From Escherichia coli (GTDB taxonomy: Bacteria > Pseudomonadota > Gammaproteobacteria > Enterobacterales > Enterobacteriaceae), in NCBI RefSeq assembly GCF_003334335.1, contig NZ_QOWQ01000014.1: 64,000 nt of DNA; one strand, given 5' to 3'. The position numbers and the translations under genes were made by a program. This document shows, one piece after another, positions 3,214 to 26,404 of this stretch. A model generated the notes under the pieces. That model was not told where the DNA came from and did no database searches. It was given only the letters and a program-made list of their open reading frames with translations. Position 1 is the first letter of the stretch; every line of letters begins with the position of its first letter.

Positions 3214-3395
<182 letters not shown>

Positions 3396-3573: not shown

Positions 3574-4062
3574 ATGAGACTGACATCTAAAGGGCGCTAT
3601 GCCGTGACCGCAATGCTTGACGTTGCGCTCAACTCTGAAGCGGGCCCGGTACCGTTGGCTGATATTTCCGAACGTCAGGGAATTTCCCTTTCTTATCTGG
3701 AACAACTGTTTTCCCGTCTGCGTAAAAATGGTCTGGTTTCCAGCGTACGTGGACCAGGCGGTGGTTATCTGTTAGGCAAAGATGCCAGCAGCATCGCCGT
3801 TGGCGAAGTAATTAGCGCCGTTGACGAATCTGTAGATGCCACCCGTTGTCAGGGTAAAGGCGGCTGCCAGGGCGGCGATAAATGCCTGACCCACGCGCTG
3901 TGGCGTGATTTGAGCGACCGTCTCACCGGTTTTCTCAACAACATTACTTTAGGCGAACTGGTTAATAACCAGGAAGTGCTGGATGTGTCTGGTCGTCAGC
4001 ATACTCACGACGCGCCACGCACCCGCACACAAGACGCGATCGACGTTAAGTTACGCGCTTAA
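3574..4062 (+). CDS. iscR: Fe-S cluster regulator IscR (Rrf2 family)
   Basis: ORF 162 aa, [65 protein letters not shown]... Confidence 0.97.
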
Positions 4063-4173
4063 TAAAAAGAATTCAGAATCAGGCCGGAGTGCTAAATACT
4101 CCGTAAACACGGTCGTACATCCAGCCGGTAGCCTGATTCCTTGCATTGAGTGATGTACGGAGTTTATAGAGCA

Positions 4174-10771: not shown

Positions 10772-11548
10772 ATGTCCGAAACAAAAAACGAACTTGAAGA
10801 CCTGCTGGAAAAAGCAGCAACTGAACCGGCGCACCGCCCGGCCTTTTTCCGTACTCTACTGGAATCCACCGTCTGGGTGCCTGGTACGGCGGCGCAGGGC
10901 GAGGCTGTGGTTGAAGATAGCGCGCTTGATTTACAGCACTGGGAAAAAGAAGACGGCACCAGCGTCATTCCTTTTTTCACCTCGTTAGAAGCACTTCAAC
11001 AGGCGGTTGAAGACGAACAGGCATTTGTCGTAATGCCCGTTCGCACGCTGTTTGAGATGACACTTGGCGAAACGCTCTTCCTTAATGCCAAAATGCCAAC
11101 CGGTAAAGAATTTATGCCGCGTGAAATCAGTTTGTTGATTGGTGAAGAGGGAAATCCGCTGAGCAGCCAGGAAATCCTGGAAGGCGGTGAATCGCTGATA
11201 TTATCGGAAGTCGCAGAGCCGCCAGCACAAATGATTGATTCACTCACCACCTTATTTAAAACCATTAAGCCGGTGAAGCGTGCTTTTATTTGTTCAATTA
11301 AAGAGAACGAAGAGGCACAGCCTAATTTACTTATTGGCATTGAAGCCGATGGTGATATCGAAGAAATTATTCAGGCGACGGGAAGTGTAGCGACCGATAC
11401 ATTACCTGGCGATGAACCAATCGATATTTGTCAGGTGAAAAAAGGGGAAAAAGGAATTAGCCACTTTATTACCGAACATATTGCGCCATTCTATGAACGT
11501 CGCTGGGGTGGTTTTTTGCGTGACTTTAAACAGAATCGGATAATCTAA
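10772..11548 (+). CDS. sseB: SseB (enhanced serine sensitivity protein B)
   Basis: Track ORF starts at GTG 10763. ATG at 10772 gives MSETKNELEDLLEKAATEPAHRPAFFRTL... (258 aa). Confidence 0.9.
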   Translation: MSETKNELEDLLEKAATEPAHRPAFFRTLLESTVWVPGTAAQGEAVVEDSALDLQHWEKEDGTSVIPFFTSLEALQQAVEDEQAFVVMPVRTLFEMTLGETLFLNAKMPTGKEFMPREISLLIGEEGNPLSSQEILEGGESLILSEVAEPPAQMIDSLTTLFKTIKPVKRAFICSIKENEEAQPNLLIGIEADGDIEEIIQATGSVATDTLPGDEPIDICQVKKGEKGISHFITEHIAPFYERRWGGFLRDFKQNRII

Positions 11549-11860
11549 AATATGCCGCCCAAAGGGCGGCATTCGGGCTTACTTGCTGCTCTGAAGGTTG
11601 TTAACCACCAGTAAATTGTCGCCGGAGAGACTCCGGTTATTATTTACCTCGGTTAACAGCGCACCAGAAACAATAAGTACGATACAAAAGCACCGTATCT
11701 TCATTGTGCGGTCCATGCGAAGACCGCATCACGACAGCACCACTGGCGATATTGCCGCGATAGCAAGCGCTGTGAAACACCTGCATTTACGGCCACGGAA
11801 CATCCTTTCCTAAAGCCAGCGCCCGTTTGCGAGACGGCGGAAAGGGCCGCAGTGGATAAT
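11549..11860 (-). ncRNA. ryfA: RyfA-like ~300-nt transcript (small-protein mRNA / sRNA) in the sseB-sseA intergenic region; ends at the hairpin 11554..11570
   Basis: Minus-strand unit inferred from an intrinsic terminator oriented for the minus strand (stem gccgccc/gggcggc at 11554..11570, U-tract given by the complement of 11545..11553), a minus-strand TATTAT -10-like hexamer at 11866..11871 (no convincing -35 found) and the enclosed small ORF. Position matches my recollection of where ryfA lies relative to sseB. Exact ends are uncertain. Confidence 0.45.
11579..11716 (-). CDS. Candidate small membrane protein, 45 codons (41 from the second ATG at 11704): MDRTMKIRCFCIVLIVSGALLTEVNNNRSLSGDNLLVVNNLQSSK; TimP-like type I toxin candidate
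   Basis: Hand translation of the minus strand. Hydrophobic N-terminal segment IRCFCIVLIVSGALL followed by a polar Asn-rich tail. Stop codon lies 8 nt upstream of the terminator hairpin. No strong Shine-Dalgarno sequence seen. Below the ORF track's length cutoff. Confidence 0.4.
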   Translation of the reverse strand: MDRTMKIRCFCIVLIVSGALLTEVNNNRSLSGDNLLVVNNLQSSK

Positions 11861-12027
11861 ACACTAACAGAACAATAATAACTCTCTTTTGCTTGACAAA
11901 AAGAGAGTTACTGGCGAGTATTGTCTCCGCTGAGACGCGCTTGCATTACTACGGTAATACAACCTGCTGGAAAGGCCGCGAACCGGACCAGCAACAAAAA
12001 ACCGCCTGATTTTGGCGGTTTTTTGTT
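11834..12027 (+). ncRNA. sRNA-like module copy 1 (~194 bp): internal inverted repeat around TTGACA, conserved 22-nt box, intrinsic terminator
   Basis: Inverted repeat actctctttt/aaaagagagt flanks gcTTGACA (11893..11898). Conserved box cctgctggaaaggccgcgaacc at 11963..11984. Hairpin aaaaaaccgcc-tgatttt-ggcggtttttt near 11995..12027 with T-tracts on both strands, so strand assignment is tentative. Longest internal ORF is 12 codons. Confidence 0.4.
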
Positions 12028-12155
12028 TTTTAAAGGAAAGTGAATTTACATGTTTAAGTAATATCTTTTACCGGTTAGAATTTTTAATTTTGAGCAGGAT
12101 TTGTTTATATTTGTCTGAATTCGGACTAATAAGCCAGGTTATTTTATTACCGAAC

Positions 12156-12349
12156 ACGGCGGAAAGGGCCGGTGTCGATAATACGCTAAATAAACAATAA
12201 TTACTCTCTTTTGCTTGACAAAAAGAGAGTTACTGGTGAGTATTGTTTTGCTGTGAAGCACCTGCGTTGCTCATGTAACACAAGTCAACCTGCTGGAAAG
12301 GCCGCGAACCAGACTAGCAATAAAAAACCGCCAAATTCGGCGGTTTTTT
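12156..12349 (+). ncRNA. sRNA-like module copy 2 (~194 bp), diverged paralogue of copy 1
   Basis: Same architecture 322 bp downstream: identical start acggcggaaagggcc, same inverted repeat and TTGACA, identical 22-nt box at 12289..12310, terminator aaaaaaccgcc-aaattc-ggcggtttttt at 12322..12349. Central part diverged (roughly 75-80% identity by eye). Longest ORF 14 codons. The terminator also closes sseA on the minus strand. Confidence 0.35.
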
Positions 12350-23900: not shown

Positions 23901-25019
23901 ATGCATAACCAGGCTCCAATTCAACGTAGAAAATCAACACGTATTTACGTTGGGAATGTGCCGATTGGCGATGGTGCTCCCATCGCCGTACAGTCCATGA
24001 CCAATACGCGTACGACAGACGTCGAAGCAACGGTCAATCAAATCAAGGCGCTGGAACGCGTTGGCGCTGATATCGTCCGTGTATCCGTACCGACGATGGA
24101 CGCGGCAGAAGCGTTCAAACTCATCAAACAGCAGGTTAACGTGCCGCTGGTGGCTGACATCCACTTCGACTATCGCATTGCGCTGAAAGTAGCGGAATAC
24201 GGCGTCGATTGTCTGCGTATTAACCCTGGCAATATCGGTAATGAAGAGCGTATTCGCATGGTGGTTGACTGTGCGCGCGATAAAAACATTCCGATCCGTA
24301 TTGGCGTTAACGCCGGATCGCTGGAAAAAGATCTGCAAGAAAAGTATGGCGAACCGACGCCGCAGGCGTTGCTGGAATCTGCCATGCGTCATGTTGATCA
24401 TCTCGATCGCCTGAACTTCGATCAGTTCAAAGTCAGCGTGAAAGCGTCTGACGTCTTCCTCGCTGTTGAGTCTTATCGTTTGCTGGCAAAACAGATCGAT
24501 CAGCCGTTGCATCTGGGGATCACCGAAGCCGGTGGTGCGCGCAGCGGGGCAGTAAAATCCGCCATTGGTTTAGGTCTGCTGCTGTCTGAAGGCATCGGCG
24601 ACACGCTGCGCGTATCGCTGGCGGCCGATCCGGTCGAAGAGATCAAAGTCGGTTTCGATATTTTGAAATCGCTGCGTATCCGTTCGCGAGGGATCAACTT
24701 CATCGCCTGCCCGACCTGTTCGCGTCAGGAATTTGATGTTATCGGTACGGTTAACGCGCTGGAGCAACGCCTGGAAGATATCATCACTCCGATGGACGTT
24801 TCGATTATCGGCTGCGTGGTGAATGGCCCAGGTGAGGCGCTGGTTTCTACACTCGGCGTCACCGGCGGCAACAAGAAAAGCGGCCTCTATGAAGATGGCG
24901 TGCGCAAAGACCGTCTGGACAACAACGATATGATCGACCAGCTGGAAGCACGCATTCGTGCGAAAGCCAGTCAGCTGGACGAAGCGCGTCGAATTGACGT
25001 TCAGCAGGTTGAAAAATAA
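23901..25019 (+). CDS. ispG: HMBPP synthase IspG (GcpE)
   Basis: ORF 372 aa, [36 protein letters not shown]... Confidence 0.97.
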
Positions 25020-25108
25020 TAACGTGATGGGAAGCGCCTCGCTTCCCGTGTATGATTGAACCCGCATGGCTCCCGAAACATTGAGGGAAGCGTTGAGGGT
25101 TCATTTTT
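25020..25108 (+). ncRNA. sroE: SroE-like 3'UTR-derived small RNA candidate between ispG and hisS
   Basis: Stable hairpin gggaagcg-cct-cgcttccc at 25029..25047, and a second stem gaaccc/gggttc followed by atttttat ending near 25108. Positional assignment only. Confidence 0.35.
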
Positions 25109-25129
25109 ATATTCAGAAAGAGAATAAAC

Positions 25130-26404
25130 GTGGCAAAAAACATTCAAGCCATTCGCGGCATGAACGATTACCTGCCTGGCGAAACGGCCATCTGGCAGCG
25201 CATTGAAGGCACACTGAAAAACGTGCTCGGCAGCTACGGTTACAGTGAAATCCGCTTGCCGATTGTAGAGCAGACCCCGCTATTCAAACGTGCGATTGGT
25301 GAAGTCACCGACGTGGTTGAAAAAGAGATGTACACCTTTGAGGATCGCAATGGCGACAGCCTGACTCTGCGCCCTGAAGGGACGGCGGGCTGTGTACGCG
25401 CCGGCATCGAGCATGGTCTTCTGTACAATCAGGAACAGCGTCTGTGGTATATCGGGCCGATGTTCCGTCACGAGCGTCCGCAGAAAGGGCGTTATCGTCA
25501 GTTCCATCAGTTGGGCTGCGAAGTTTTCGGTCTGCAAGGTCCGGATATCGACGCTGAACTGATTATGCTCACTGCCCGCTGGTGGCGCGCGCTGGGTATT
25601 TCCGAGCACGTAACTCTTGAGCTGAACTCTATCGGTTCGCTGGAAGCACGCGCCAATTACCGCGATGCGCTGGTGGCATTCCTTGAGCAGCATAAAGAAA
25701 AGCTGGACGAAGACTGCAAACGCCGCATGTACACTAACCCGCTGCGCGTGCTGGATTCAAAAAATCCGGAAGTGCAGGCGCTTCTCAACGACGCTCCGGC
25801 ATTAGGTGACTATCTGGACGAGGAATCTCGTGAGCATTTTGCCGGTCTGTGCAAACTGCTGGAGAGCGCGGGGATCGCTTACACCGTAAACCAGCGTCTG
25901 GTGCGTGGTCTGGATTACTACAACCGTACCGTTTTCGAGTGGGTGACTAACAGTCTCGGCTCCCAGGGCACCGTGTGTGCAGGCGGTCGTTATGACGGTC
26001 TTGTGGAACAACTGGGCGGTCGTGCAACACCGGCTGTCGGTTTTGCGATGGGCCTCGAACGTCTTGTATTGTTAGTACAGGCCGTTAATCCGGAATTTAA
26101 AGCCGATCCTGTTGTCGATATATACCTGGTGGCTTCAGGTGCTGATACACAATCTGCGGCTATGGCATTAGCTGAGCGTCTGCGTGATGAATTACCGGGC
26201 GTGAAATTGATGACCAACCACGGCGGCGGCAACTTTAAGAAACAGTTTGCCCGTGCTGATAAATGGGGTGCCCGCGTTGCTGTGGTGCTGGGTGAGTCTG
26301 AAGTGGCTAACGGCACAGCAGTAGTGAAGGATTTGCGCTCTGGTGAGCAAACGGCAGTTGCGCAGGATAGCGTAGCCGCGCATTTGCGCACGTTACTGGG
26401 TTAA
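25130..26404 (+). CDS. hisS: Histidyl-tRNA synthetase
   Basis: ORF 424 aa, [38 protein letters not shown]... Confidence 0.97.

Follow-up and report, generated by a model that had tools for sequence, protein, structure and literature searches.

SroE between ispG and hisS in Escherichia coli: a known small RNA read as a possible terminator–promoter junction

The genes ispG and hisS of Escherichia coli are neighbours on the same strand, and the short spacer between them has potential to form stable stem-loop structures when transcribed. We wondered what this spacer is: the 3' end of the upstream transcript, a control region of hisS, or both at once. The analysis concerns a window of 64,000 nucleotides, i.e. 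the whole stretch of contig NZ_QOWQ01000014.1 (assembly GCF_003334335.1) that was studied, in which the spacer is 110 bp long and occupies exactly positions 25020–25129. Features discussed below are listed in Table 1.

Table 1. Positions of features in the window, with the basis of each assignment
Feature	Position	Strand	Description and basis
ispG coding sequence	23901..25019	+	stop codon TAA at 25017–25019; ORF list and annotation of identical E. coli records
Primary 5' end inside ispG	24753	+	Kim et al. 2012: 2638974 (−), U00096.2 coordinates, 4 reads
sroE	25019..25110	+	92-nt small RNA, b4761, RF00371; Rfam and MG1655 annotation
Hairpin H1	25023..25054	+	core stem GGGAAGCG/CGCTTCCC at 25030–37/25041–48, loop CCU; folds
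−35-like hexamer TGGGAA (3/6)	25028..25033	+	17 bp upstream of −10, overlaps H1 5' arm; read from sequence
Proposed −10 hexamer TATGAT of hisS promoter	25051..25056	+	in invariant linker, 8 nt upstream of mapped 5' end
Hairpin H2, predicted terminator stem	25057..25103	+	outer stem TGAACCC (25057–63)/GGGTTCA (25097–103), interior variable; folds
Primary 5' end (TSS) of hisS transcript, G25064	25064	+	Kim et al. 2012 TSS map
U-tract, TTTTT then AT	25104..25110	+	TTTTT at 25104–25108; sequence; annotated SroE 3' end at 25110
hisS ribosome-binding region and start codon	25116..25132	+	GAAAGAGAATAAAC and GTG; AGAGAA…AACGTG columns invariant or nearly so
hisS coding sequence	25130..26404	+	start codon GTG; ORF list and annotation of identical E. 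coli records
naRNA4	3275–3346	+	Rfam
iscR stability element (iscRS)	4063–4172	+	Rfam
ryfA	11547–11850	−	Rfam
IS128	11982–12190	−	Rfam

Identity and fold of the spacer

A 2.4-kb query around the spacer was matched in all 5426 complete E. coli genomes, and a 171-base stretch around the spacer agrees with K-12 MG1655 in every base (100% identity). Rfam family RF00371 (sroE) covers the region with all of its model positions (1–92 of 92) at 116.6 bits (E = 1.8e-28), the gathering score of the model being 51 bits. The match is located between ispG (gcpE) and hisS on the strand of both genes, and the identical bases in the MG1655 record are annotated as ncRNA sroE (b4761), 2640595–2640686 on the minus strand. 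The same 92 nt were used as the SroE sequence in earlier work (PMC6172242). The spacer element is SroE itself, at its type locus, and was already known. As an sRNA gene annotated since 2003, sroE is merely re-found here, which is of little importance in itself.

The first-pass annotation, made from the letters alone, had called the spacer RNA SroE-like and had named an Rfam scan as a way to check this. Both the full-length match and the sroE gene on identical MG1655 sequence bear it out. Its proposal that the RNA is processed from a 3'UTR is supported too. No primary start is listed at the 5' end of SroE in the transcription start site (TSS) map of Kim et al. 2012 (PMC3415461), and SroE has been classed with sRNAs that arise by processing from the 3' ends of longer transcripts (PMC8313858).

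Folding of 25017–25129 as RNA yields two hairpins, H1 and H2, with ΔG of −41.6 kcal/mol and z = −4.73; none of 200 shuffled sequences was as stable. Both are also stable when folded alone (H1, −16.5 kcal/mol, z −4.5; H2, −21.7 kcal/mol, z −3.8). The arrangement noticed at first sight, two hairpins between the ispG stop and the hisS start with a U-tract behind the second, is thereby confirmed. Since the stable H2 stem ends at 25103 and TTTTT follows directly, H2 has the form of an intrinsic terminator. A rule-based terminator scan of the spacer returned no site; its rule accepts loops of 3–8 nt only, and H2 was missed because it is a long branched hairpin whose loop size falls outside this rule.

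Elsewhere in the window, the other Rfam matches above gathering scores are naRNA4, the iscR stability element (iscRS), ryfA and IS128, all of them known E. coli RNA elements.

Conservation across Enterobacterales

Further, we compared the locus in 80 Enterobacterales loci (one genome per species), which were fetched through IspG. Adjacency of ispG and hisS and the GTG start codon of hisS are found in 80 of the 80, and the length of the spacer ranges from 13 to 241 nt. Within Enterobacteriaceae, several blocks are near-invariant: the H1 stem (TGGGAAGC…GCTTCCC), the linker between the hairpins, the outer stem of H2 (TGAACCC/GGGTTCA), the T-run followed by RTAT, and the ribosome-binding region of hisS. 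In 43 Enterobacteriaceae spacers the linker TGTATGAT shows no change at all. Both the loop of H1 and everything inside the outer stem of H2 are free to vary in this family, and the H2 interior is hypervariable, with lengths from 5 to 158 nt across the loci.

The outer stem of H2 and the T-run are kept in 67 of 79 related loci, belonging to Enterobacteriaceae, Erwiniaceae and Yersiniaceae. Pairing of this stem reaches 88.4% (27 distinct sequences) versus at most 46% in slid controls, and it is accompanied by compensatory exchanges of C-G for U-A and vice versa (Erwiniaceae), by G-C↔A-U exchanges and by several wobble changes. In Enterobacter, H2 is reduced to a minimal stem with a 5-nt loop and T6. 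H1 behaves differently: 98.3% of its cells are paired in 29 distinct Enterobacteriaceae sequences, mostly through invariance, and its compensatory changes number two, each in a single sequence. In Erwiniaceae and Yersiniaceae, a different G+C-rich hairpin stands in place of H1, and in Pantoea and Erwinia the linker is different as well.

The RF00371 model itself reaches threshold in only part of Enterobacteriaceae. Among relatives, Klebsiella (75.3), Enterobacter (58.2) and Mangrovibacter (51.5) pass the gathering score. The remaining 17 loci scanned stay under it: 6 more of Enterobacteriaceae type (Raoultella, Shimwellia, Siccibacter, Buttiauxella, Cedecea and Affinibrenneria), 8 Erwiniaceae, 2 of Yersiniaceae type and 1 unclassified Enterobacterales MAG.

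Some spacers depart from the common form. One Pantoea locus (L070, 3622–3636) has an ispG–hisS spacer of 13 nt, and several Erwinia and Rosenbergiella loci (L051, L065, L067, L068, L073) have spacers of 53–62 nt with a single hairpin, mostly without a T-run. These short spacers imply that the terminator/SroE module is dispensable in parts of Erwiniaceae. Conversely, about 95 nt are inserted in the H1 loop of Pseudocitrobacter and about 125 nt inside H2 of Cedecea sp. and 'Klebsiella sp. BIGb0407' (insertion-carrying spacers: L009 and L010, 3619–3805; L040 and L047, 3622–3864). The insertions fold as long hairpins and leave the SroE blocks on either side intact; they may represent small mobile palindromic elements. 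Lastly, the linker of Pantoea loci such as L053 (GTTTGTGATTGAAC) includes TTGTGAT, which we take to be the anticodon-loop sequence of tRNA-His and which is absent from the Enterobacteriaceae linker. This likeness is probably a coincidence.

Transcript ends and the proposed junction

The hisS promoter was reportedly sequenced in 1982 by Eisenbeis and Parker. In the 5'-triphosphate-enriched TSS map of E. coli (PMC3415461), a start at 2638663 on the minus strand is supported by 6 reads and was assigned to 'sroE' by the pipeline of the authors. The −50 to +1 sequence given for it ends in ...TATGATTGAACCCG / …GTGTATGATTGAACCCG, so that it corresponds to G25064 of the window. With this base, 66 nt before the hisS GTG, the sequence has just left the 5' arm of H2. 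In this single data set the start follows the TATGAT of the linker at a distance of 8 nt, within the 6–9 nt expected of a sigma-70 promoter. TATGAT matches the −10 consensus in 5 of 6 positions and is required for neither H1 nor H2. A consensus promoter scan of the spacer, demanding at least 4/6 for each hexamer, found no site, which is due to these thresholds, TGGGAA having only 3/6. With a position-weight scan, the combination TGGGAA-17-TATGAT comes up in almost every Enterobacteriaceae locus. Activity of a hisS promoter fusion in a promoter library (PMC10665441) has also been recorded.

The position of the start relative to the hairpin appears to be preserved as well. In nearly all of 47 Enterobacteriaceae sequences examined, TATGAT adjoins the 5' arm of H2 (offset 0 or ±1), and the geometry is therefore conserved. 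An RNA that begins at 25064 is not significantly structured (z = −0.07), nor does it form a hairpin adjoining the U-tract. Serratia, Chimaeribacter and Affinibrenneria (L079, L081, L082; spacers 3622–3762) are devoid of the linker TATGAT and carry a near-consensus promoter instead (TTGAAN, 16–18 bp, TATAAT), which ends 35–38 nt before the hisS GTG. In Serratia and Chimaeribacter this promoter lies inside H2, and the start predicted from its sequence would again fall beyond the 5' arm; in Affinibrenneria no H2 stem was found.

The first-pass idea of a terminator–promoter junction thus finds support from both sides, namely H2 with its T-run in most related loci and the primary 5' end behind an invariant TATGAT. 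On this basis we propose that the spacer, as sroE, is a composite junction. Transcription entering from ispG and the genes before it would be ended by H2 and the U-tract as an intrinsic terminator. The hisS promoter would be embedded in the same DNA, its −35-like TGGGAA lying over H1 and its TATGAT in the linker between H1 and H2, and transcription of hisS would start one base beyond the 5' arm of the terminator stem. RNA from this promoter would therefore be deprived of half of the stem and run into hisS, while RNA derived from ispG would possess both arms of H2 and could stop at the U-tract. The 92-nt SroE would then arise from the ispG transcript by a cut at or close to the stop codon, as a stable remnant of its 3' end whose two termini are protected by H1 and the terminator hairpin.

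We estimate the probability of this composite-junction reading at about 0.65. Its observed basis consists of the identity of the spacer, its structure, its conservation pattern and one published primary 5' end. Efficiency of termination, processing of the 5' end by an endonuclease and absence of a dedicated function in trans are parts of it that we infer. Near-invariance of the H1 stem, where just two compensatory changes occur, exceeds what a hairpin alone needs and counts against the reading; other weak points are the TSS, with its six reads from one data set, the poor −35 element together with the negative consensus promoter scan, the absence of a Term-seq 3' end at the U-tract, and the association of SroE with Hfq (see below), which leaves some probability to a role in trans.

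RNA 3' ends give a mixed picture. The annotated end of SroE lies at the end of the U-tract, but Adams et al. 2021, in their Term-seq tables, call no RNA 3' end there (26405xx–26406xx). Termination at H2 may be weak, or SroE scarce, in the conditions used.

The same Term-seq tables contain strong RNA 3' ends inside hisS, at window positions 25271 and 25422 (+). They correspond to MG1655 2640434 and 2640283, i.e. 141 and 292 nt into the coding sequence, and the former is marked as not Rho-dependent.

Another primary 5' end of the TSS map is situated within ispG, 377 nt upstream of hisS (Table 1); its −50 to +1 sequence is window 24703–24753. Transcripts from there include the whole SroE region, and it is possible that the site is an internal promoter feeding both SroE and hisS.

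Should the composite-junction reading be true, the apparent essentiality of SroE in transposon screens would be explained without a regulatory RNA function. SroE was scored 'required' in Salmonella transposon libraries (TraDIS) by Barquist et al. (PMC3632133), presumably because insertions would separate the essential hisS from its promoter. Likewise, conservation of a 'seed' in SroE would be no evidence of target pairing. What is added to the known gene is modest: a testable reading in which the conserved core of SroE would coincide with the hisS promoter and its 3' hairpin would be a terminator, escaped by the hisS transcript because this starts within it.

Alternative roles and relation to known systems

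SroE might instead be a trans-acting, Hfq-dependent regulator that uses the single-stranded linker (GUGUAUGAUUGAACCC) as seed for mRNAs. It does have the architecture of a 3'UTR-derived sRNA, with 5' hairpin, conserved linker, and terminator with U-tail; it was found among Hfq-associated sRNAs in nitrogen-starved E. coli (PMC12539622), and its level is 1.75-fold lower in K. pneumoniae Δhfq (PMC3136514). However, weak in vitro binding to ligB is all that came out of ten predicted targets, in a study where SroE is called uncharacterized and its Hfq dependence is given as N/A (PMC6172242). Overexpressed SroE caused no change in biofilm, motility or fimbriae (PMC4606813), a search of the RNA for an (ARN)x Hfq motif was negative (PMC5575007), and SroE is detected in all conditions (PMC12266141), its level being unchanged across nutrient conditions in the same work. 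The −10 element and the mapped TSS account for conservation of the linker just as well, and the linker differs in Pantoea and Erwinia. A regulator acting in trans is hence doubtful in our opinion. A promoter dedicated to SroE where ispG ends, which would make the RNA a primary transcript rather than a processing product, is unlikely. TTGACG (24994–24999) and AATAAT (25015–25020) score 10.2 bits at a spacing of 15 in a position-weight scan, and several genera carry TTGACG-17-TAACGT in their place. Yet a 15-bp spacing is poor, the predicted start (~25027) disagrees with the annotated 5' end at 25019, and conservation of TTGACG follows from its being coding sequence; the TSS map has no entry at 2638700–2638799 (Kim et al. 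2012, PMC3415461), and SroE is classed as processed (PMC8313858). The label 'REP' that sroE bears in the RepRanger table (PMC12306157) would make H1 a dispersed REP-type palindromic repeat present here by chance. This can be excluded, as the sequence is single-copy: a search at E ≤ 10 gives one copy of H1 with the linker, and no second one, in each of the 5426 complete E. coli genomes, and this sequence is conserved at the single locus across genera.

A T-box-like leader of hisS was proposed by Barquist et al. (PMC3632133), and the element might more generally be a cis-regulatory leader that senses tRNA-His, histidine or HisRS (T-box-like, attenuator or operator mimic) through a terminator/antiterminator switch. 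It is always found 5' of essential hisS, its 'required' score in TraDIS would fit (PMC3632133), and it places a terminator-like hairpin upstream of a gene. The E. coli sequence contains GGGAAGCG at both 25030 and 25087, so that the 3' arm of H1 could pair in another way; the loop of H2 contains CAU, and a His-rich open reading frame (25066–25206, plus strand; 46 codons, 6 of them His) opens 2 nt behind G25064 and runs across the hisS start in a different frame. But the interior of H2, where the downstream copy of GGGAAGCG, the CAU and the start codon of this frame all reside, is hypervariable or absent in other genera, and a hypervariable interior argues against the published T-box-like leader. 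Neither T-box nor any other cis-regulatory family of Rfam was matched even at E ≤ 1, and the loops are not conserved. Moreover, the main hisS mRNA contains neither H1 nor the linker nor the 5' arm of H2, all of which precede the mapped hisS TSS, and Erwinia, Rosenbergiella and one Pantoea have spacers of 13–62 nt without a terminator. We regard a sensing leader as improbable. Related in purpose is the suggestion raised by H1. Its palindrome (TGGGAAGC-N5-GCTTCCCG) covers the hisS promoter from −36 to −16, and because its stem is kept across genera while the loop drifts freely, it is a possible sequence-specific binding site. A putative DNA operator for a protein, or an RNA site related to HisRS or tRNA, could tune initiation at hisS or read-through from ispG as part of an undescribed control of histidyl-tRNA synthetase; such a role we consider unlikely.

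Individual devices for such control were considered and rejected. The duplicated GGGAAGCG does not qualify as antiterminator, since the second copy is absent outside Escherichia and a few Citrobacter, nor does the CAU of H2 as T-box-like specifier, which is not conserved and comes with no T-box match. A His leader peptide as general mechanism was dismissed too: its ATG is poorly kept (only in Escherichia, Citrobacter, Raoultella and one Enterobacter sp.), and its His codons are the alternate frame of conserved hisS codons. The open reading frame is probably due to chance.

Returning to the composite junction, we compared the element with known systems. With SroE (RF00371; K-12 b4761) it shares everything, i.e. 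sequence, length, position from the ispG stop codon to the U-tract, and structure, and no difference was seen. Among 3'UTR-derived sRNAs that use the terminator of their parent mRNA, SroC and CpxQ have defined seeds and targets. Like them, SroE forms the 3' part of a coding transcript, ends at a predicted intrinsic terminator and is classed as processed (PMC8313858). In contrast to them, it has no seed or target beyond the one weak in vitro binding (PMC6172242), and its linker, the most conserved part, would double as a −10 element. T-box and other leaders of aminoacyl-tRNA synthetase genes, such as the Bacillus hisS T-box and the thrS operator, have in common with sroE a structured RNA and a predicted terminator upstream of a synthetase gene (PMC3632133); sroE differs by having no T-box match, no conserved specifier or antiterminator, and the hisS TSS inside the element.

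The closest likeness in layout is to intrinsic (Rho-independent) terminators that overlap a downstream promoter. Our literature search retrieved no paper stating an arrangement with the start behind the 5' arm for hisS. The stem with its G+C-rich top, the U-tract and the proposed promoter of the next gene within the spacer are shared by sroE and such junctions. What sets sroE apart from them is that the start sits directly after the 5' arm, and the hairpin would therefore form only in RNA that comes from upstream.
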